This document shows, piece after piece, positions 2,561-61,081 of a stretch of DNA of 64,000 bases. The stretch is from Thermoanaerobaculia bacterium (lineage in GTDB: Bacteria > Acidobacteriota > Thermoanaerobaculia > UBA5066 > Gp7-AA6): positions 64,409-128,408 of the forward strand of contig DASXPB010000028.1 of the NCBI GenBank assembly GCA_036493875.1. Reading direction: 5' to 3'. The notes beneath the pieces are model-generated. The model was given only the letters and a program-made list of their open reading frames with translations, was not told the origin of the DNA and did not search any database. How positions within the stretch are numbered: the stretch's first letter is position 1; every line of letters begins with the position of its first letter. A program made the translations under genes and the position numbers.

Positions 2561-3675
2561 GTCCGCCGGATGACCCCGCCACCCAGGACCACGTCCCCCT
2601 CGTAGAAGACGCACGACTGGCCCGGCGTGACGGCGCGGACGGGATGGTCGAAGACGACGCGCGCTTGCCCGCCCTCTCCCGGGAAGACCGTCGCCGGGAC
2701 CTCCTCGGCGCGGTGACGGATGCGCGCGGCGGTGCGGAACGGCGTCCGCCGCGGACCCGCGATCAGCCGCAGGTCGCCGATCGAGGCCTCGAGCGACTCG
2801 AGCTCGCGCGCCGGACCCACGACCACGCGGTTCTCCGCGGCGTCGACCTCGAGCACGTACAGGCGCTCCGTGGCCGCGCCACCATTCGAGCGCGGCCTCG
2901 AGGCCGCGACGTCCCCAAGCCCCCGACGCTGTCCGATCGTGAAGCGGAAGTGGCCATCGTGGGAGCCCAGTGACTTTCCGCTCGAGTCCTCGAGGCGGCC
3001 CGGCGCCGACGGCAGCGACAGCCCCAATCCGGCGGCCTCACGCGCGACGAACTCCCCCGCGCGGGTCCCGACGGGCACGAAGCAGATCTCCTGGCTCTCC
3101 GGCTTGTCCGCCGTCGGCAGGCCCGCGCGCCTCGCGTGCGCGCGCACCTCCGCCTTGGTCAGCGAGCCGACCGGGAACCGAGCGGCGGCGAGCTGCTCCT
3201 CCGTCAGGTCGTAGAGGAAGTACGACTGGTCCTTCGCCGCATCGACCCCCTTGCGCAGCGTCCGGAGTCCGGAGACCGGATCGTGGTCGACCCGCACGTA
3301 GTGTCCCGTGGCCACGGCCGCGCATCCGAGCCCGCGCGCGCGCTCCCAGAGCGTCGCGAACTTGATCTTCGCGTTGCAGGCGGAGCAGGGGATCGGCGTC
3401 TCCCCCGCGAGGTAGGACGCGACGAACGGGCGGACGACGTCCCGGCCGAATTCCTCCTCCAGGTTGAGCACGTAGTGGCGGATGCCGAGCGCCCAGCCCA
3501 CGCGCCGCGCATCGGAGAGATCGTCCAGGGTGCAACAGCGCCCCGACCGGCCCGCCTCGCCCGAGTGGTCCCACAGCTGCATCGAGAGGCCGACGACCTC
3601 GTGGCCCTCCTCCTTCAGCAGCAGAGCGGCGACCGAGGAGTCGACGCCCCCGGACATGGCGACGGCGATGCGCAT
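2557..3675 (-). CDS. mnmA: tRNA-specific 2-thiouridylase MnmA
   Basis: MRIAVAMSGGVDSSVAALLLK PP-loop; catalytic Cys blocks (IPCSACNAKIKF, QEICF); full length, 372 aa. Confidence 0.95.
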   Translation of the reverse strand: MRIAVAMSGGVDSSVAALLLKEEGHEVVGLSMQLWDHSGEAGRSGRCCTLDDLSDARRVGWALGIRHYVLNLEEEFGRDVVRPFVASYLAGETPIPCSACNAKIKFATLWERARGLGCAAVATGHYVRVDHDPVSGLRTLRKGVDAAKDQSYFLYDLTEEQLAAARFPVGSLTKAEVRAHARRAGLPTADKPESQEICFVPVGTRAGEFVAREAAGLGLSLPSAPGRLEDSSGKSLGSHDGHFRFTIGQRRGLGDVAASRPRSNGGAATERLYVLEVDAAENRVVVGPARELESLEASIGDLRLIAGPRRTPFRTAARIRHRAEEVPATVFPGEGGQARVVFDHPVRAVTPGQSCVFYEGDVVLGGGVIRRT

Positions 3676-42193: not shown

Positions 42194-43282
42194 TCAGCCT
42201 CTCACGACCTCGAGTCGCTTCGCCGCGCGCGGCCGCACCGCGCCGATCACCGCCGCGTGGACCGCACCCAGGGCGCGGCACCTCGCCGCGAACGCCTCCG
42301 CCTGTTCCGCGGGCAGGGCGACCAGCAGACCGCCCGAGGTCTGTGCGTCGGAGAGGATCAGCAGGTCCTCCTCCCCCACGCCCGGCCCCGCCGCGGTGCG
42401 CTCGGCCAACTGTCGCATGTTCGCGCGCGAGCCGCCCGGCGCGACGCCCTCCGCGACGAGGCGCCGCACCTGCGACAGCAGGGGGATCCGGTCGACCGCC
42501 AGCTCCGCCGTCGTGTCGGACGCCTCCATCATCTCGTGCGCGTGGCCGAGCAGGCCGAAACCGGTCACGTCCGTCGCGGCATGGATGTCGAATCCCTCCA
42601 TCGCCTCGACCGGGGCGCGGTTGAGGGTGCACATCACCTTCACCGCCTCCTCGAGCGCGTCGTCCGACAATTTCCGCGAAGCGCCGGCTTCGCTCGCCGA
42701 GTCGATCCGGCCGGCGCGGATGGTGATCCCGATCCCGAGGGGCTTCGTCAGCACGAGGGCGTCGCCCGGCCGGGCGCCGGCGTTGCGCGTCACCTTCGCC
42801 TCGTCGACGACGCCGGTCACCGAGAGCCCGTAGAGAGGGATGTCGTGGTCGATCGAGTGCCCGCCGGCGATCACGGCGCCCGACTCGGCGACCGCCTCGG
42901 AGCCGCCGCGGAGGATCTCCTCGAGGACCTCGCTCGGCAGCACCTTCATGGGAAAGGCGACGACCGCGAGGGCCAGCACCGGCCGGCCGCGCATGGCGTA
43001 GACGTCCGAGAGCGCGTTCGTGGCCGCGATGCGCCCGAACAGTCGCGGGTCGTCCACGACCGGCGTGAAGAAGTCGATCGTCTGGACGATCGTCGCGCCC
43101 GGAGCGACGCGATAGACGGCGGCGTCGTCGGACTCGGCGCTGCCGACCAGCAGGTTCGGATCGGTGGCGCCAGGGACCCTCCGCAGAAGCGCGGACAGGT
43201 CGAACTGGGGGATCTTGCAGGCGCACCCCGCGCTCGAGGCGAAGGTCGAGAGCGGTCGGTGGGCGGAGCGCGATTCCGGCAT
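42194..43282 (-). CDS. selD: selenide, water dikinase (selenophosphate synthetase), Cys-type
   Basis: N-terminal SSAGCACKIP (Cys where some SelD have Sec), then DDAAVYRV...DFFTPVVDDP...ALSDVYAMG...GGHSIDH. AIR-synthase-like C-terminus. 362 aa. Confidence 0.9.
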   Translation of the reverse strand: MPESRSAHRPLSTFASSAGCACKIPQFDLSALLRRVPGATDPNLLVGSAESDDAAVYRVAPGATIVQTIDFFTPVVDDPRLFGRIAATNALSDVYAMRGRPVLALAVVAFPMKVLPSEVLEEILRGGSEAVAESGAVIAGGHSIDHDIPLYGLSVTGVVDEAKVTRNAGARPGDALVLTKPLGIGITIRAGRIDSASEAGASRKLSDDALEEAVKVMCTLNRAPVEAMEGFDIHAATDVTGFGLLGHAHEMMEASDTTAELAVDRIPLLSQVRRLVAEGVAPGGSRANMRQLAERTAAGPGVGEEDLLILSDAQTSGGLLVALPAEQAEAFAARCRALGAVHAAVIGAVRPRAAKRLEVVRG

Positions 43283-53432: not shown

Positions 53433-54379
53433 GTCAGGCCGTGGCGAAACGGGTCCCGCGGGTCGAAGTAGAGCGTGGCGCGCGCCGTCACGAACGCGCG
53501 GCCCTGGATCCGCGGAACGAGCTTGCCCTCGCGCTCCTCGAGCCAGCCCGTGAAGAGGCTCCCGGTGATGCCCTCCTGGCGCCACCTCTGGCCGGGGGCG
53601 AGGCTCCCGCGCGCATAGAGCGAGGCCATCGTCGCCGACGTGCCGGTGCCGCACGGGGAGCGGTCGTACGCGCCGCCGGGGCACATCACGTAGTTCTTGC
53701 CGTCGGCGTCGGTCCGCGCCGGCGGGCCGAGGAGGATGACGTGGTCGACCGCCTCGCCCCCGTCGCCGCGGATCCCCCGGTCCGCGAGGGCCTTCTGGAT
53801 CGCGAGCGTCGCGCTGCGATACTCCTCCCGCCGGGAAGAGTCGATCGGCTGCGACTCTCCGAGGCGAGTCAGGAAGAACCAGTTGCCGCCGTACGCGACG
53901 TCGCCGACCATGCGGCCCCGGCCGGGGACCTCGACCGCGACGTCGCGAGCGAGGCAGCGCGCCGGGACGTTCTCGATCGTCACCATCCCGTCGACGGCGA
54001 GCTCCGCGCCCACGGTCCCCACGGGCGTGTCGAGGCGCACGGACCCCGGGCCGATGCGGCCCAGGTGCTCGAGCGTGCGCACCACGCCGATCGTGCCGTG
54101 CCCGCACATCCACAGCGGCCCCACGTTGTCGAAGAAGACGACGCCCGCGACGGACCCCGCGGCGACCGGCGGCGTCAGCAGCGCGCCCACGAGCGCGTCG
54201 TGGCCACGGGGCTCGAGCACGACGGCCCGCCAGATCGCGGCGTCGCGGCCGGCGAGCTGGTCCCGGCGTCCTCGCATCTCGGGGGCGGTCAGGTCGGGCC
54301 AGCCGGAGACGACGACCCGCGTCGGCTCTCCTTCGGTGTGCGAATCGATCACCTCGATCGACTCGGGCCACACGCTCAC
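53414..54379 (-). CDS. 4-hydroxyproline 2-epimerase (proline racemase family, Cys/Cys type)
   Basis: IDSHTEGEPTRVV...MCGHGTIG...DRSPCGTGTSA. Both catalytic positions are Cys. The GTG start 54379 overlaps the upstream stop (GTGA). Confidence 0.85.
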   Translation of the reverse strand: MSVWPESIEVIDSHTEGEPTRVVVSGWPDLTAPEMRGRRDQLAGRDAAIWRAVVLEPRGHDALVGALLTPPVAAGSVAGVVFFDNVGPLWMCGHGTIGVVRTLEHLGRIGPGSVRLDTPVGTVGAELAVDGMVTIENVPARCLARDVAVEVPGRGRMVGDVAYGGNWFFLTRLGESQPIDSSRREEYRSATLAIQKALADRGIRGDGGEAVDHVILLGPPARTDADGKNYVMCPGGAYDRSPCGTGTSATMASLYARGSLAPGQRWRQEGITGSLFTGWLEEREGKLVPRIQGRAFVTARATLYFDPRDPFRHGLTWSPTS

Positions 54380-55935
54380 AGCGGATCTCGGGTCGGCGCG
54401 CCGTCCACGAGCCGCCAGATCCCCCGCGGGTTGGAATCCTGGAGCTCCGCGGGGAGGGCGGACTGGGGGAAGTCCTGGTAGCAGACCGGCCGCGCGAAGC
54501 GGTGGATCGCGGCCGTGCCGACGGAGGTCGCGCGGGAATCCGTCGTCGCGGGATAGGGGCCGCCGTGATGCATCGCGTGACACACCTCGACCCCCGTCGG
54601 GAACCCGTTGAAGACCAGCCTTCCCGCCTTTCGGCGCAGGACCGCGATGAGCTCGCCGTAGTCCTCGAGGTCCCGCCCCCCGGCATGGATCGTCGCGGTG
54701 AGCTGGCCCCTCAGGGAGCGCGCGAGCTGGAGCATCTCGGGCCGCGAGCCGCAGCGGACCGCGAGCGTCGCGGGCCCGTAGATCTCGCCGGCCAGGCGGG
54801 GATTGTCGCGGTAGGTCGCGACGTCCGTGACCATGAGCGCGGGATGCGCCTGCGTCTCCGCGAAGCCGCCCGGCGCCTCCGAGCGCGCGGCGATCGCCAC
54901 CCCCGCTATGCGCGCGAACTGCGCGATCTCCTCGTCGTAGGCAGACTTGATGCCCGCGTGGACCATCGTGCCCGCCGGGGATCCGCCGAGCAGCTCGCCG
55001 ACGGACTGGAGGAAGGCGCTCGACGACGGCGAGTCGACCAGCGCGGCGAGACCCGGATTCGTGCAGAACTGGCCGGACCCCAGCGTCACGGACGCCGCGA
55101 GCCCCTTCGCGATGGCGTCCCCGCGCGCCTCGAGCGCGCCCGGCAGGAGGAAGATCGGGTTCGACGATCCCATCTCGGCGTACACCGGGATCGGCTCGGG
55201 CCGCATCGCCGCGGCGTCGAAGAGCGTCCGTCCGGCGCGCAGCGATCCCGTGAAGCCGGCCGCGCGGATCAGCGGGTGGGTCACGAGCGTGATGCCGACC
55301 TCAGGCGCGGCGCCGTGCACCATCGAGAAGACGCCCTCGGGCATGCGCGTCTCCCGCGCCGCCGTGCGAATGGCGAGCGCCGCGAGCTCGGAGGTCCCGG
55401 GATGCGCGGGGTGCGCCTTGACTACGACCGGGCAGCCCGCGGCCATCGCCGAGACGGTGTCCCCTCCGGCCACCGAGAACGCGAGTGGGAAGTTGGACGC
55501 GCCGAAGACCGCCACCGGCCCCATCGCGACGAGCAGCCGCCGCAGGTCCGGACGCGGCAGCGGCTTGCGGTCGGGCAGCGCGCGGTCGATGCGCGCGTCG
55601 ACCCAGGAGCCTTGCTCGAGCAGGCCCGCGAAGAGCAGGACCTGGCTGACCGTGCGGGCGCGCTCGCTCTCGAGCCGCGCCGGCGGCAGCCCCGTCTCCG
55701 CTTCCGCGCGTTCCAGCAGCCGGTCGCCGAGCGACAGGATCTGCTGCGCGACGGCGCGGAGGAACTCGGCCCGGCGGATCGGATGCAGGGACGCGAATGG
55801 CTCGAAGGCGCGGTCCGCGGCGCGCGCCGCCGCATCGATCTCGCCGATCGAGGCCTCGTGGTACTCGCCGTCGAGGACCTCCCCGGTCGCGGGGTTCCGC
55901 GCACGGAAGCCGGCTCGGGGACGCGGATCGCTCAC
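54376..55935 (-). CDS. NAD(P)+ aldehyde dehydrogenase; by context alpha-ketoglutarate semialdehyde dehydrogenase
   Basis: VAVFGASNFPLAFS...VVVKAHPAHPGTS...FTGS...EMGSSNP...GQFCTNPG. The GTG start 55935 overlaps the upstream stop (GTGA). Confidence 0.85.
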   Translation of the reverse strand: MSDPRPRAGFRARNPATGEVLDGEYHEASIGEIDAAARAADRAFEPFASLHPIRRAEFLRAVAQQILSLGDRLLERAEAETGLPPARLESERARTVSQVLLFAGLLEQGSWVDARIDRALPDRKPLPRPDLRRLLVAMGPVAVFGASNFPLAFSVAGGDTVSAMAAGCPVVVKAHPAHPGTSELAALAIRTAARETRMPEGVFSMVHGAAPEVGITLVTHPLIRAAGFTGSLRAGRTLFDAAAMRPEPIPVYAEMGSSNPIFLLPGALEARGDAIAKGLAASVTLGSGQFCTNPGLAALVDSPSSSAFLQSVGELLGGSPAGTMVHAGIKSAYDEEIAQFARIAGVAIAARSEAPGGFAETQAHPALMVTDVATYRDNPRLAGEIYGPATLAVRCGSRPEMLQLARSLRGQLTATIHAGGRDLEDYGELIAVLRRKAGRLVFNGFPTGVEVCHAMHHGGPYPATTDSRATSVGTAAIHRFARPVCYQDFPQSALPAELQDSNPRGIWRLVDGAPTRDPL

Positions 55936-57698
55936 GGGGCCTTCGACCTCGCGATCCACGCGCGCACCTGCTCCTCCAGGACCGACAGCGGCACCGCGCC
56001 GTTTTCCAGGACCGTGTCGTGGAACGCGCGTACGTCGAAACGATCTCCGAGCGCTTCCTCCGCCTCGCGACGCAGCGCGCGAATCTTCAGCTCGCCCATC
56101 TTGTAGCAGAGGGCCTGCGCGGGCCACGAGATGTAGCGGTCGGTCTCCGTCTGGACCTCGTGGAGAGAGAGGGCGGTGTTGTTCTCGAGATATTCCATCG
56201 CCTCCTGCCGCGTCCAGCCCTTGGCGTGCATCCCGGTATCGACGACGAGGCGGCACGCGCGCCACATCTCGTAGGTCAGGCGGCCGAAGTCGCCGTAGGG
56301 GTCCTTGTAGAAGCCGGCCTCCAGCCCCAGCCGCTCGGCATAGAGCGCCCAGCCCTCGACGAAAGCCCCCTCGGAGGCGAAGCGCCGGAACTCCGGAAGG
56401 CCGGTCAGCTCCTGCTGGAGCGCGATCTGGAGATGGTGTCCGGGGACCGCCTCGTGCAGCGTGAGCGACTCGAGCGTATAGAGCGGCCGCGTGTCGAGCG
56501 CGTACGTGTTGACCCAGTAGGTCCCCGCGCGCGTGCCGCCGATCGGCGCCTCCACGTAGCGTCCGCCGGTGTACTTGGGCGCGAGGTGGGCGGGGACGGG
56601 CTCGACGCCGTAGGGAAGGCGCGGCAGCCTCCCGAACAGGGACGGCAGCTTCCCATCCATCGTCTTCGCGATGTACGCAGCCTGCTTCAGCAGCTCCTCG
56701 GGAGTCTTCGCGTAGAAGCGCGGGTCGGTCCGCAGCGTGTTGAGGAAGGCGGCGAAGTTGCCCTCGAAGCCGGTCTTGCGGATGACCCCTTCCATCTCGA
56801 TGCGGATCCGCGCGACCTCCCGGCGGCCGATGTCGTAGACCTCGTCGGGCGTCACGTCGAGGGTCGTGAAGGACTTCACGAGGTGCGCGTAATACTCGCG
56901 TCCCTTCGGCAGGCTCGAGGCGGCGACCGAGGAGCGCGCGCCGGGGACGTATTCGTTCCGCAGGAAGTCGGCGAGCGCGCGGTATCCCGCCACGACGCCT
57001 TCCCGGATCGCCGCGCGGCCCGCGTCGGTCAGCCGGGCTCGCTCGGAGTCCGGAACGCCGACCGGGAAGCGGCGGAAGGGTGCGAAGAAGACGCTCTTCT
57101 CGGGCGAGTCCACGACGTGCGTGGTCATCGTCACGTCGATGCCCTGGAGGACGACCCGCGGCAGCGTGAATCCCGCCTTCAGGCCCTCGCGCATCGCGCC
57201 GATCTCCTCGTCGACCCATCGCGGGAAGGCGCGCATGCGGGCGATGTAGTTCTCGTAGTCGCGCACCGTCCGGAACGGCGCGCGGTCCGGGAGGTCCGCG
57301 AAGTCCGTGTGGAAGCCGCTGTCCGCGTTGAGCGGAATTCGCCACGCGCCGAACTCGACGTCCGCGACGGAGTCGGACAGCTGGCGGACGAGCATGTCGT
57401 AGCTGACGCGGTCCGCCGTCGCCAGGCCGGTACGGTCGATCGCGGCGAGCCGCCGGAGCATGGTGCGGGCGAACTCTGCCCGCCGGTTCCAGTCCGCGCG
57501 CGTCGCGGACGGGAGACGGTCGTCGTAGCGGTGCTCGCCCGCCGACGTCGCGAACAGCGGATCCTCGCCGAGCCGGAAGGCCCACGCCTCGTCGAAGAGC
57601 GCCTGCAGGGTCGCGTCGGGGGCGACCGGGACGACCCTCATGCCCACCCCGGCCAGCAGAATCGCGGCGAGTGCCAATACGCGCACGTCGGCGGGCAT
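55932..57698 (-). CDS. secreted DUF885 family protein (metallopeptidase-like HExxPGHH motif)
   Basis: Signal peptide MPADVRVLALAAILLAGVG. DUF885 blocks include LTLHEAVPGHHLQ and YISWPAQALCYKMG. ORF 55932..57833 trimmed to the ATG at 57698. Confidence 0.8.
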   Translation of the reverse strand: MPADVRVLALAAILLAGVGMRVVPVAPDATLQALFDEAWAFRLGEDPLFATSAGEHRYDDRLPSATRADWNRRAEFARTMLRRLAAIDRTGLATADRVSYDMLVRQLSDSVADVEFGAWRIPLNADSGFHTDFADLPDRAPFRTVRDYENYIARMRAFPRWVDEEIGAMREGLKAGFTLPRVVLQGIDVTMTTHVVDSPEKSVFFAPFRRFPVGVPDSERARLTDAGRAAIREGVVAGYRALADFLRNEYVPGARSSVAASSLPKGREYYAHLVKSFTTLDVTPDEVYDIGRREVARIRIEMEGVIRKTGFEGNFAAFLNTLRTDPRFYAKTPEELLKQAAYIAKTMDGKLPSLFGRLPRLPYGVEPVPAHLAPKYTGGRYVEAPIGGTRAGTYWVNTYALDTRPLYTLESLTLHEAVPGHHLQIALQQELTGLPEFRRFASEGAFVEGWALYAERLGLEAGFYKDPYGDFGRLTYEMWRACRLVVDTGMHAKGWTRQEAMEYLENNTALSLHEVQTETDRYISWPAQALCYKMGELKIRALRREAEEALGDRFDVRAFHDTVLENGAVPLSVLEEQVRAWIARSKAP

Positions 57699-57720
57699 CG
57701 TAGCAGGGTTGGGCGGCGCG

Positions 57721-57790
57721 TAACGCCGCCCGAGAAATCGCCACGCGGAACGCCGCCCGTGAGATCGCCGCGCGGAACGCCGCCTGCGCA
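57721..57790. repeat. 27-nt tandem repeat, about 2.4 copies, in the intergenic region upstream of the DUF885 gene
   Basis: Unit 57721-57747 (taacgccgcccgagaaatcgccacgcg) and unit 57748-57774 (gaacgccgcccgtgagatcgccgcgcg) match at 23/27. A third partial unit begins gaacgccgcc. Overlaps hairpin 57712-57730. Confidence 0.65.
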
Positions 57791-57836
57791 TCCGAGTCGC
57801 CGGAAGTTTTCGTTCCGCCGCCGCAAGCCTCACGAG

Positions 57837-59162
57837 CTAGAGCGCGTCGAGCTTCCTCCGCAGCGAGACGACCTGCTCCTCGGAGCGCTGCCCCTCCGGA
57901 AGTCCGTCCGCGAAGGTGACGGCCTCCTCGAGGGTCTTGCGGGCTCCGGAACGATCGCCCTTGCCGAGCTGGATGTCGACGATCGTCGACAGGACTCGGA
58001 TCCGGCGCGGACCGTAGACGCGCTCGAGCGCGCGATCGGCCGCGGCCTTCGCGTCGTCGTAGCGCTGGAGCTTCAGGTAGACCACCGCCAGCCGCGCGGG
58101 CGGGTTGTAGTCCTTCGGGAAGTCCTTCTCCGACTGCTCGAGCATCGGGATGGCGTCCTCGATCCGCTTCGCCGCCTCGAACGCGCCCAGGCGGTTCGGA
58201 TCGAGGGCCGTCCGCTGCTCCGGCGACTGCGCCCGCGAGGCCGCCGCGTCGAGGTCCGCCACCCAGGCGTCGGCGACGCGCTGGGCGCCCTCGGCGTCCT
58301 TCGCGTCGTCGCGCTCGTCGAAGAGGGAGGAGTAGAGGGCCGAACGGTCGTCCTCGGCGAGCTTCAGGGAAGGGTCGGCGAGCGCAGCCCGCACGTCCTT
58401 CGCGAACGCGGCGACGGACTCGGCGCGGGAGGGATCGCTCGGCGGCAGCGCGAGCGAGCAGTCGAGCCCCGAGCCCGCCAGGCTCGTGCCGGATTGCGTG
58501 CCCTTCAGCGACGCGATGCGGGATCGCGCGAGCGCGGCGCACGCGGAGTGGTCGCGCGTCGTCTGGTAGCAGAAGAGGAGCGACTCGACGACGCGCGGGT
58601 ACTGCGGATCCTTGGGCGGGAGCGTCTCGAGCGTCTTCTTGTACGCCTCCCCCGCCTCCGCGTAGTGCCCGTCCCCGTACAGCGCATCGGCCTTCGCGAG
58701 GAGCGTCGCGGAGCCCGTCCCGGAGCCCTTGACCGCCTTCGTCCCGTCCGCGAAGAGCTTCTCGAGCTGCGAGACCGTCGCGCCGCCGACCCAGCGCAGG
58801 GCGATCTTCTCCCGCACAGGGTCGATGACGTACAACGACGGCCAGGCCCGAATCGGGTACTTCTTACTGAAGGCCGCGTTCTTCGCGTTTTCCGTGTCGA
58901 TCGAGAGCCAGACGAACTGTCCGGCGTGCTTCGCGAGGGCCTTGTCGGTGAAGACGAAGGCTCTCATCGAGCGGCACGTGTGTCACCAGGGCGCCCAGGC
59001 CTCGACGAAGATCGGCAGCTTTTTCTGCTTCGCGAGCGAGAGCGCCTTCTCGTAGTCGTCGTCGATGAACGGGAGCACCGGGGCCGGGGCGGGGGCATTG
59101 GCTGCCAGCGCCGCCGACGCGACGAAGAGCATCCAGGGAAGCGAGCGGAGACGCGTGATCAT
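57837..59162 (-). CDS. secreted thioredoxin-fold plus TPR-like protein with in-frame TGA at the first position of WCxxC: candidate selenoprotein (U60-H-T-C); alternatively a TGC-to-TGA pseudogene
   Basis: ORFs 58983..59192 and 57837..58967 are in one frame. Read through: MITRLRSLPWMLFVASAALA...DDDYEKALSLAKQKKLPIFVEAWAPW[TGA]HTCRSMRAFVFTD...FVWLSIDTEN.... RBS GGAGAGGAAG lies before ATG 59162. GC3 bias holds on both sides of the TGA. Confidence 0.6.
58935..58965 (-). promoter_or_regulatory. stem-loop 17 nt downstream of the TGA (possible SECIS-like element; loop non-canonical)
   Basis: GAG-A-GCCUU-C-GUC UUCACC GAC-AAGGC-C-CUC. 11 bp with one mismatch and one bulge. Confidence 0.3.
58983..58985 (-). 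other. in-frame TGA (putative Sec codon) at the nucleophilic Cys position of the thioredoxin motif
   Basis: Minus strand: gcc tgg gcg ccc tgg TGA cac acg tgc cgc tcg atg. Confidence 0.55.
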
Positions 59163-59214
59163 GGCTTCCTCTCCCCTTCCAAGATACCGCATTGGCCGCG
59201 GGCAGGACCGCGGC

Positions 59215-59249: not shown

Positions 59250-59873
59250 ATGAGATACGTCCTGCGTTCGCTCGTTGTTTTGACCGGCGCCCTCGTCTTC
59301 GCGGCCGGCCTCCAGGCCCAGGAGAAGGCCAAGAAGCCGGCGGCCAAGACCGCTCCCCCGGATGAGAAGGCCATGATGGAGGCCGTGCAGAAGGCGGCCA
59401 CGCCTGGCGACATGCACAAGAAGCTCGCCGACATGGTCGGGACGTTCGACGCCGATGTCCGCATGTTCATGGACCCGTCCAAGCCTCCCGAGGACTCGAA
59501 GGGCACGTCCGTCAACACGTGGGCCCTCGGCAACCGCTTCGTGGAGAGCAAGTACGACGGCACCTTCATGGGGAACCCGTTCAACGGCATCGGCTACACG
59601 GGCTACGACAACACCCAGAAGAAGTACGTGGGCAGCTGGATGGACACAGCCTCGACGGGAATGATGTGGTCCACGTGCACGCTCGACGCCTCCGGCAAGT
59701 CGATGACGTGCAAGTCGACCTCGGTTTGGGACCCGATGAGCAGGAAGCCGAGCCCGATGGAGTTCAAGACCACCTTCACCGACCACGACCACTACTCCAT
59801 GGAGATGTGGGGCGCGATGCCGGACGGGAAGAAGATGAAGATGATGGAGATCAGCTACACGCGGAAGAGCTGA
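59250..59873 (+). CDS. secreted DUF1579 family protein
   Basis: Only the last 207 aa of the 1358-aa ORF 55797..59873 look real: signal peptide MRYVLRSLVVLTGALVFAAGLQA...HKKLADMVGTFD...GNRFVESKYDGTFMGNPFNGIGYTGYDNTQKKYVGSWMD. Confidence 0.8.
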   Translation: MRYVLRSLVVLTGALVFAAGLQAQEKAKKPAAKTAPPDEKAMMEAVQKAATPGDMHKKLADMVGTFDADVRMFMDPSKPPEDSKGTSVNTWALGNRFVESKYDGTFMGNPFNGIGYTGYDNTQKKYVGSWMDTASTGMMWSTCTLDASGKSMTCKSTSVWDPMSRKPSPMEFKTTFTDHDHYSMEMWGAMPDGKKMKMMEISYTRKS

Positions 59874-59894: not shown

Positions 59895-60467
59895 TCAGGT
59901 CCGGGCGATCGCCCGGACCTCGATCCGCCCTCCGTGCTTCACGTGCGGGCAGGTCCGCGCCACGGCGACCGCGGCATCCAGGTCCGGCGCCGAGATGACG
60001 AAGTAGCCGCCGAGGGGCCAGCCCGACACCGCATCGGGCGGACCCAGGACGCGGCCCTCGGACCGGAGCTTCTCCCCCGCGATCTCCCGTCCTGCGGCGC
60101 GGACGCCGCGGGCCCAATTCCGGTACTCGTCGACGCGCGTCTGCATCTGCGCGTCGGTCAGGGCCTTCTCGTCGGGCGTGTCGTAGAGGAAGAGCGCGAA
60201 GCGAGGGAGCGCCGAGGCGGCGGCGTTCGGGTTCGGGGCGCCGCGCCGGAGTCCGACGGCGACGCCCAGTGAGAACAGAACGACCGCCGCCGCCGCCGCG
60301 AGGAGACGACTCCGCCCGACGGATCGGCGCCGGGCGGCGACCAGCCCGGCCTCCGAGAGCCTCGTCACCGTCGCCGCCTCGAGCGCCGCGGGCGGCTCGG
60401 GACCGTCCGCGAGCCCGCGCAGCGCGCGCCGTTCGGCGTCGCCCAGATCCGGTTCGTCCGTCTTCAT
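59895..60467 (-). CDS. single-pass membrane protein with extracytoplasmic YCII/DGPF-like domain; anti-sigma candidate by position
   Basis: Short cytoplasmic N-terminus, TM helix LLAAAAAVVLFSLGVAVGL, then FALFLYD...YRNWARG...LGGYFVISAPDLDAAVAVARTCPH. The ATG 60467 overlaps the sigma-factor stop (ATGA). Confidence 0.65.
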   Translation of the reverse strand: MKTDEPDLGDAERRALRGLADGPEPPAALEAATVTRLSEAGLVAARRRSVGRSRLLAAAAAVVLFSLGVAVGLRRGAPNPNAAASALPRFALFLYDTPDEKALTDAQMQTRVDEYRNWARGVRAAGREIAGEKLRSEGRVLGPPDAVSGWPLGGYFVISAPDLDAAVAVARTCPHVKHGGRIEVRAIART

Positions 60468-61081
60468 GTCCGCCTCCCTCCCAGGCGCGCGCGCAGCGAG
60501 CGACGCGCCCGCGACAGCTGGCTCTTCGAGGTCCCCTCGTCCACGTCCAGGAGCTCGGCGATCTCGCCATGCGTGTGGCCGTAGACGTCGTGCAGCAGAA
60601 TCGCCTCGCGGTATCCGAGGGAAAGATCCCCGAGCGCGCGCTCGAGGTCGATCCGGTCGATCTCGCCCTCGGTCGGCGGAGAGATGGCCGCGAGGACTTC
60701 GAGATCCTCCGGCCGCTCCTCTCCGCCCCGTCCGCGCCGCCGGCACTCCTCACGCCACCAGCGGATCGCGATCCCGGCGAGCCACGTCGAGAGCGCCGAA
60801 CGCCACGCGAACCGCTCGAGGCTCCGGCACGCGCGCACCCACGTCTCCTGGACTCCCTCCTCGGCGTCCGCGGCGCGACCCGTCAGGCGGAGCAAGAACC
60901 GGTACAGCCGGGCGGAGTGCCTCTCGTAGAGGTCCCGGAACGCCGCTTCGTCGCGCCGCGCCAGGAAGCGGGAGACGAGGGGGCGGTCCGCATCCCCACC
61001 TCCGGATTCCGCGACGCCTTGACTCGCGGCCTTTGCCCCGACGTTCACGGCTTCCGCGTCTGAACGATCTCCTCGAGCCAT
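60464..61081 (-). CDS. ECF-type RNA polymerase sigma factor
   Basis: Region 2: FRDLYERHSARLYRFLLRLTG...AEEGVQETWVRA. Region 4: YREAILLHDVYGHTHGEIAELLDVDEGTSKSQLSRARRSLR. Start is ATG 61081 or GTG 61048; the latter would give a GTGA overlap with the upstream stop. Confidence 0.85.
   Translation of the reverse strand: MARGDRSDAEAVNVGAKAASQGVAESGGGDADRPLVSRFLARRDEAAFRDLYERHSARLYRFLLRLTGRAADAEEGVQETWVRACRSLERFAWRSALSTWLAGIAIRWWREECRRRGRGGEERPEDLEVLAAISPPTEGEIDRIDLERALGDLSLGYREAILLHDVYGHTHGEIAELLDVDEGTSKSQLSRARRSLRARLGGRRT

Follow-up and report, generated by a model that had tools for sequence, protein, structure and literature searches.

The 64,000-nucleotide stretch of Thermoanaerobaculia bacterium DNA analysed here (contig DASXPB010000028.1, positions 64,409 to 128,408; hereafter the window) carries on its minus strand a gene whose predicted product combines a signal peptide, a thioredoxin fold and a tetratricopeptide repeat (TPR)-like tail, and whose reading frame is interrupted by one TGA. 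The original prediction, made from the letters alone, had noted that two minus-strand open reading frames (ORFs), 58983..59192 and 57837..58967, share a frame, and had proposed that the TGA between them encodes selenocysteine (Sec) at the first Cys of a thioredoxin WCxxC motif. The shared frame is borne out by direct reading and translation: ATG 59162 to TAG 57837 is one frame, and the TGA at 58985..58983 is its sole interruption. The gap between the two ORFs consists of this TGA and five codons (CAC ACG TGC CGC TCG), after which comes ATG 58967. Translation of 59162..57837 gives the junction as it had been described, ...KKLPIFVEAWAPW*HTCRSMRAFVFTDKAL..., or, with the TGA marked, ...LPIFVEAWAPW-[TGA]-HTCRSMRAFVFTDKAL.... 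We read the locus, with a probability of about 0.92, as one gene for a 441-residue exported thioredoxin-TPR selenoprotein in which UGA codon 60 specifies Sec (Table 1).

Table 1. Features of the selenoprotein gene, its mRNA and its predicted product, together with selD (window coordinates)
Feature	Position	Strand	Remarks
Full read-through coding sequence	57837..59162	-	441 codons plus TAG stop (57839..57837), with one in-frame TGA
Shine-Dalgarno-like sequence GGAGAGGAAG	59165..59174	-	Two bases 5' of ATG 59162; read from the sequence
TGA codon 60, proposed Sec codon	58983..58985	-	Opens the U-H-T-C redox motif (58985..58974)
Hairpin A, imperfect 52-nt stem-loop	58926..58977 (alignment columns 9-60)	-	Begins 5 nt past the UGA
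Hairpin B, GCCGGAC-AGUUC-GUCUGGC, candidate SelB-binding Sec insertion sequence (SECIS)	58907..58925 (alignment columns 61-79)	-	7-bp stem; 5-nt loop at 58918..58914
Predicted signal peptide, residues 1-20, MITRLRSLPWMLFVASAALA	59103..59162	-	A-L-A cleavage motif, inferred from the sequence
Thioredoxin-fold domain, residues ~30-145	58728..59075	-	Pfam, AlphaFold2 model, PDB sequence match
All-helical TPR-like C-terminal domain, residues ~150-441	57840..58715	-	Pfam TPR_19, TPR_12 and TPR_2 above cut-offs
selD (selenide, water dikinase)	42194..43282	-	TIGR00476; Cys-type GCACK site, not a Sec-containing SelD

The coding signal continues across the TGA. The GC content of third codon positions is of coding type on both flanks, as had been claimed (0.94 upstream, 0.90 downstream), and a six-frame scan of the window finds only this TGA with 50 stop-free, coding-type codons on each side. 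That scan for TGA codons with coding signal on both flanks reveals no further selenoprotein genes in the window; in the 80 homologous loci introduced below (L001-L080) it returns six matches, all of them apparently spurious antisense frames. Elsewhere TGA is an ordinary stop that ends 23 of the 44 confident ORFs in the window, so the standard code applies and codon 60 is a local exception. At the 5' end, the sequence resembling a ribosome-binding site that had been pointed out before the upstream piece is present (GGAGAGGAAG), and the start Met of the homologues is the equivalent of ATG 59162. The read-through product aligns from end to end with full-length Cys homologues of 440-460 amino acids. 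Besides the TGA, the window copy shows none of the further decay that the original prediction had named as a mark of a pseudogene.

The annotation of the relatives already bears the trace of the interruption. A protein search across 5.8 billion proteins was made, and the best 120 matches were classed by length and coverage: about 70% are 373-385 amino acids long, span 84-85% of the query and begin with the Met that follows the TGA, as truncated gene calls would, and the remainder (420-480 amino acids) cover the whole query. An exhaustive HMMER search yields 478 representatives at 50% identity with E <=1e-30; 44 of the best 150 such representatives begin exactly at query residue 66, so these too are truncated calls. 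NCBI and JGI label the truncated products 'tetratricopeptide repeat protein'. Automatic callers do split the gene, as had been anticipated, and databases list a product deprived of its signal peptide and of half its active site. All full-length relatives read WAPW-C-HTC (WAPWCHTCRSM) at the junction, where the UGA aligns with the invariant first Cys; in 16 full-length homologues, the UGA column is the first Cys of WCHTC.

At the level of codons, we fetched 80 species-representative genomic loci, mostly from Thermoanaerobaculia or Acidobacteriota, with a few under the labels Eisenbacteria, Methylomirabilota, Verrucomicrobiia or Pyxidicoccus. Of the 78 loci in which the codon at the site could be read, 57 have TGA and 21 have TGC. 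The codon motif search missed two loci, and one of them (L009) is also TGA. Homologues with Cys in this column and relatives with TGA, the two kinds that the original prediction had proposed to check for, therefore both exist. The TGA is found down to about 46% protein identity, and the 57 TGA copies contain no other stops or frameshifts. Upstream LP(F/W)I(E/D)DDY..AL..A....PIF.E.WAPW and downstream HTCRSM.A.V.TD are conserved throughout, and the immediate flanks (...PIFVEAWAPW / HTCRSMRAFVFTD...) are conserved on both sides of the codon. Among the TGA forms, median dN/dS is 0.30 over the 30 codons before the TGA and 0.40 over the 60 codons after it; the N-terminal part, whose lack of conservation would have refuted the original prediction by its own terms, is thus under purifying selection in genes that bear the TGA. 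Fitch parsimony on a neighbour-joining tree puts the number of independent switches between Sec and Cys at about 10. Such dynamic Sec/Cys alternation is a described pattern of bacterial selenoprotein families (PMC1794560).

These data leave little room for a plain nonsense pseudogene, that is, a TGC-to-TGA mutation in a Cys-type thioredoxin-TPR gene. Such an event would fit the existence of full-length Cys-type homologues with up to 76% identity (P0003) and the fact that selA, selB and selC are not seen in the window, but it does not account for the same TGA in 57 species-level genomes whose copies are otherwise intact, for purifying selection on both flanks, or for a specific RNA hairpin that the TGA forms share and the Cys forms lack (see below). 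A sequencing error is ruled out as well, since the 57 copies were found in different species and in separate assemblies. We therefore give the pseudogene next to no credence.

Two further observations on the 80 loci deserve mention. In two Cys forms from metagenome-assembled genomes (MAGs) of the MFD series (L032, ~3094-3200; L037, ~3139-3250) the frame is lost about 20 codons past the CxxC, through either assembly indels or real decay. A divergent TGA subclade (L065, L070, L071, L077, L079 and L080) has W for L/V before P-(F/V)-I-E-D-D-F, and its records are labelled Verrucomicrobiia, Methylomirabilota, Eisenbacteria or simply 'bacterium'. Either the family extends beyond Acidobacteriota or the taxonomy or binning of these MAGs is inconsistent.

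Gene callers in effect annotate two products: a stop at the UGA that releases a 59-residue secreted peptide, and a restart at ATG 58967 that yields a 376-residue TPR protein. An ATG does lie five codons past the TGA, and the public annotation of the downstream piece is indeed 'tetratricopeptide repeat protein'; however, this Met (M66) is an invariant internal helix residue after the CxxC in the Cys forms too and is consequently no evidence of a start, nor does any Shine-Dalgarno-like sequence precede ATG 58967 (the preceding bases are CACACGTGCCGCTCG). The split would cut the thioredoxin fold after strand 1, through the redox motif, and leave the downstream protein without a signal peptide, in keeping with the earlier judgement that neither piece is sensible alone. 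It would also leave the alternation of TGA and TGC unexplained. Two separate products are, in our estimate, highly improbable. Taken together, the 57 TGA and 21 TGC loci, the selection on both flanks and the truncated calls exclude the pseudogene, the sequencing error and the two-gene arrangement. Selenoproteins with UxxC in a thioredoxin fold form a textbook class (PMC1794560, PMC13188914), and the sequence evidence places the gene in that known class as a new member and rules out a pseudogene.

As judged from sequence and structural modelling, the 441-residue read-through product is a signal peptide followed by a thioredoxin fold with W-U-H-T-C and by about 290 residues of TPR-like helices. 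The signal peptide that had been proposed for the upstream piece has the look of a substrate of the general secretory pathway, with cleavage predicted between MITRLRSLPWMLFVASAALA and AN, and those homologues that include the N-terminus have a comparable basic and hydrophobic segment there. For the Pfam search, U in the read-through product was replaced by C and gathering scores were applied. Three thioredoxin families exceed these scores over residues ~35-136 (Thioredoxin_7 PF13899, 37.6 bits vs 27; Thioredoxin PF00085, 32.1 vs 23.5; Thioredoxin_2 PF13098, 31.5 vs 27), so the thioredoxin-fold identity stands. An invariant W-P-S at W107-P108-S109 marks the presumed cis-Pro loop. Invariant motifs of the TPR-like domain are ADDRSALY, TALDPNRL, FPxDYNPPxRLA and VYGPRxxRV, and the domain contains two invariant Cys residues (C208 and C235).

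An AlphaFold2 model was examined for P0003, the Cys homologue with 76% identity (mean predicted local distance difference test score, pLDDT, 89; predicted template modelling score 0.84). Residues 1-24 are disordered in the model (pLDDT <50) and correspond to the presumed signal peptide. The redox domain has a beta-alpha-beta-alpha-beta-alpha-beta-beta-alpha topology, in which C/U-H-T-C lies between strand 51-56 and helix 61-72 and opens that helix. Sixteen helices of >=4 residues follow the thioredoxin fold, 15 of them within residues 150-441, in a TPR-like array. Foldseek searches against the PDB give only generic TPR superhelices as whole-protein matches, and none of the NCBIfam models reaches its cut-off on the product. 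Membership of the TsoB (NF045694) and VPGUxxT (NF041383) families was rejected on scores of 27.8 against a cut-off of 805 and 13.6 against 275, respectively.

Downstream of the UGA, the mRNA can fold into two adjoining hairpins, here called A and B, both of which are contained in the minimum free energy (MFE) fold of the copy in the window. We compared them in an alignment of the 58 TGA forms (A3) that is free of gaps for 85 nt from the UGA. Hairpin A has an apical loop UUCACS, located 30 nt after the UGA and without a conserved G. Its sequence and register are variable; pairing holds in 83% of its cells, compensatory changes affect six pairs, and the hairpin is absent from the RNAalifold consensus. 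Its mean pair probabilities are 0.4-0.7 in Sec forms vs 0.05-0.3 in Cys forms. Hairpin B begins 57 nt past the UGA and directly abuts hairpin A without a spacer. Its consensus across the Sec forms, GCCGGAC-RGUUC-GUCUGGC, is invariant in nucleotides; pairing holds in every one of the 57 distinct Sec forms, and RNAalifold reports the hairpin as the sole consensus helix (-11.95 kcal/mol). The original prediction had suggested folding the RNA 3' of the UGA, and the outcome is a hairpin B of -12.0 kcal/mol (z = -4.1) that is specific to TGA forms, with a mean pair probability of 0.76-0.89 in Sec forms vs 0.05-0.17 in Cys forms. No meaningful hairpin-B-like motif turns up elsewhere in the DNA scanned.

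Because hairpin B shows no covariation, codon usage serves as its control. Ala80 is encoded by GCC in 57 of 58 Sec forms, vs GCG 9, GCC 7 and GCA 1 among the Cys forms. For Val84 the Sec forms use GTC without exception (58 of 58), vs GTC 14, GTG 5 and GTT 1. Gly81 is GGA in 47 and GGG in 11 Sec forms, vs GGG 6, GGC 3 and GGA 1 in Cys forms; GGA is rare in these genes, and A or G at this third position both pair with U. Other conserved fourfold-degenerate columns of the Sec-form genes mostly have a codon entropy of ~0.5-1.7 bits. The Sec forms keep the synonymous sites of hairpin B frozen, and the Cys forms leave them free. Three Cys forms (L008, L011 and L019) are unable to form the hairpin. 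Another TGC form, L026 (JBBDKM010000026.1, 3167-3189), is sister to the TGA form L025 and retains hairpin B intact at -11.4 kcal/mol, apparently a SECIS that persists as a fossil after a recent switch from Sec to Cys. With the TGA at the catalytic Cys, its alternation with TGC and an RNA hairpin specific to the TGA forms, the UxxC selenoprotein design of the original prediction is supported.

We infer that the UGA is decoded by SelB with Sec-tRNA(Sec), guided by the downstream mRNA structure. The RGUUC loop of hairpin B bears the G-U signature of SelB-binding loops and would be the putative binding site. Like the SECIS of E. coli fdhF, hairpin B is a stable hairpin within the coding sequence 3' of a UGA-C, with a small G-U apical loop (GGUC in fdhF, RGUUC here). 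The two differ in position: the loop starts 18 nt after the UGA in fdhF and 64 nt after it in hairpin B, with the 52-nt hairpin A between. No spacer separates A from B, so that B would be drawn towards the mRNA entrance as A folds. With the UGA in the A site, folded hairpin A might thus act as a compact spacer that positions hairpin B near this entrance, and its folding could offset the 64-nt linear distance from UGA to loop. This would amount to a distinct, bipartite class of bacterial SECIS, in which hairpin B is brought to the ribosome entrance by a variable 52-nt spacer hairpin. We put this forward tentatively, as an idea that is rather more likely wrong than right.

The unusual position of hairpin B raises the possibility of read-through without Sec, in which a near-cognate tRNA supplies Cys or Trp, or decoding depends on conditions, and the hairpins merely slow termination. 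All 58 forms have UGA-C as the stop context, which in E. coli is a weak context for termination. The conserved hairpin at a distance that is non-canonical for SelB (PMC13188914) would also suit such a mechanism, as would the fact that, of the Sec machinery, selD alone is seen in the 64-kb window. Against this stand the presence of selD itself, the small G-U-containing loop of hairpin B on a 7-8 bp stem, which is like that of SelB-binding hairpins (E. coli fdhF), and the location of the codon, which falls exactly at the catalytic Cys and alternates only with TGC. Alternation with TGC at a catalytic Cys is a known evolutionary signature of Sec/Cys pairs (PMC1794560). Read-through without Sec is accordingly very improbable in our view, and insertion of Sec at codon 60 is the reading we retain.

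Several points nevertheless weigh against that reading. The first concerns the RNA. The consensus bacterial SECIS has a loop of 3-9 nt whose first two positions contain G, an upper stem of 4-16 bp, an MFE of <=-7.5 kcal/mol and a UGA-to-loop distance of 16-37 nt (PMC13188914). Hairpin B lies within the loop, stem and energy ranges in all 58 Sec forms, but its loop is 64-65 nt past the UGA, outside the 16-37 nt spacing; only 21 of the 58 have an intact copy of the sole G-loop candidate at canonical spacing (GAUGAG-GGCC-UUCGUC, spacing 20). Being invariant, hairpin B lacks covariation, and its support consists of conservation and the Cys-form control. Rfam gives no match for the 161-nt region at E up to 10, and over the whole window at gathering thresholds it reports only tRNA-Ala. 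Some selenoprotein genes do fall outside the consensus, probably with other SECIS classes (PMC13188914), and the RNA element described here may be one of those.

The second point concerns the selenium machinery. The selD gene that had been placed 15 kb away is confirmed (TIGR00476, 373.7 bits vs a cut-off of 125). Searches of the 64-kb window by tblastn with E. coli SelA and SelB find neither selA nor selB, tRNA-Sec is not in the window either, and the same tblastn queries return nothing across the 80 loci. A degenerate scan for the pyridoxal phosphate motif of SelA and two SelA-based locus searches show, among the matches listed, that selA is present in other Thermoanaerobaculaceae and Thermoanaerobaculia MAGs; no selA among those matches comes from an assembly carrying the TGA gene. 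In those selA loci, selB and tRNA-Sec do not adjoin selA. In the window, the neighbours of selD encode a Ser/Thr kinase and a YihY-family membrane protein, and neither is a selenium gene.

The third point is function, where export, the redox role and client binding by the TPR-like domain are all deduced from sequence and model, and where the gene neighbourhood gives no clue. The protein would be exported through the general secretory pathway by means of its basic and hydrophobic N-terminal segment with the A-L-A site. In the periplasm it may act as a thiol-disulfide (selenenylsulfide) oxidoreductase, in which U60 would attack and C63 would resolve, and the TPR-like domain of about 290 residues would hold a client protein or a partner.

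Comparison with known systems helps to place the family. As in other thioredoxin-fold UxxC selenoproteins, Sec occupies the first Cys position of a CxxC, Cys orthologues coexist with Sec forms and switching is repeated. Unlike the known members of this class, the protein adds a signal peptide and a conserved TPR-like C-terminal domain of about 290 residues; the W-U-H-T-C motif, the lineage (Thermoanaerobaculia and neighbours) and the hairpin at 64 nt are further differences. The literature searched makes no mention of a TPR-linked thioredoxin selenoprotein, and the tables of a 2026 review do not include a thioredoxin-TPR selenoprotein family (PMC13188914). The Trx7/PDZ (seleno)protein family NF041199 is similar in that it joins a Thioredoxin_7-type redox domain to a protein- or peptide-binding module and occurs in Sec and Cys forms, but it has a CxxU motif and a PDZ domain (PMC13188914), whereas ours is UxxC with TPR repeats. 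Membership of NF041199 was rejected at 16.8 bits against a cut-off of 300.

The best PDB sequence matches to the redox domain are 2kuc, a 'putative disulphide-isomerase' (E 3e-12), and DsbD C-terminal domains (~3e-5). The gamma domain of DsbD carries out thiol-disulfide exchange in the periplasm. In contrast to the present protein, 2kuc and DsbD gamma are stand-alone or membrane-tethered, have no TPR repeats and use Cys rather than Sec. The chaperedoxin CnoX/YbbN (E. coli b0492) has the same order of parts, an N-terminal thioredoxin domain and then TPR helices, and JGI labels one Cys homologue (P0019) 'thioredoxin-like negative regulator of GroEL'. CnoX is cytoplasmic, is not known to have a signal peptide or Sec, and is 284 amino acids long as opposed to 441 here. 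Homology to CnoX was rejected (hhalign probability 4%, E 0.01, with only 65 thioredoxin-core columns aligned), and CnoX is not among the 50 Foldseek matches listed. We take it as a working analogue for the attachment of a redox domain to a scaffold that binds clients.

The surrounding genes complete the description of the locus. Downstream on the same strand lies a DUF885-family gene (55932..57833, minus strand, 604 bits), followed by an aldehyde dehydrogenase at ~54376..55900. A 27-nt tandem repeat at 57717..57784 (2.5 copies, 90% match; CGCGGAACGCCGCCCGAGAAATCGCCA) occupies the spacer between the selenoprotein stop and the probable true start of the DUF885 gene; the annotated GTG start at 57833 probably over-extends that gene across the repeat. 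Upstream are a divergent DUF1579 gene (59271..59873, plus strand), a YCII-domain protein (59895..60746, minus strand) and an extracytoplasmic function (ECF)-type sigma factor (60464..61063, minus strand). By tblastn, the DUF1579, YCII and ECF sigma genes occur in 30, 17 and 15 of the 80 loci, mostly those of closer relatives. The neighbourhood was considered as a functional clue and set aside, as DUF885, the aldehyde dehydrogenase, DUF1579 and the ECF sigma pair are conserved only among closer relatives, a pattern that we read as vertical synteny and not as an operon signal.

What the gene means reaches beyond one contig. A protein family common in soil Acidobacteriota (~478 representatives at 50% identity, E <=1e-30) is mis-annotated publicly, an error that can be corrected, and its roughly ten Sec/Cys switches, with a fossil SECIS among them, form a clean natural data set. 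The possibly non-canonical SECIS is the one feature that a specialist might find surprising. If hairpin B is the functional element, current bacterial SECIS search models under-detect such genes; if the bipartite arrangement is true, the 16-37 nt rule describes a three-dimensional and not a linear distance, and genes of this kind are systematically missed. For the organisms themselves, the finding enlarges, by one exported selenoprotein, the selenoproteome of a soil class that is abundant but uncultured and implies that these bacteria require selenium for the redox chemistry of their envelope.

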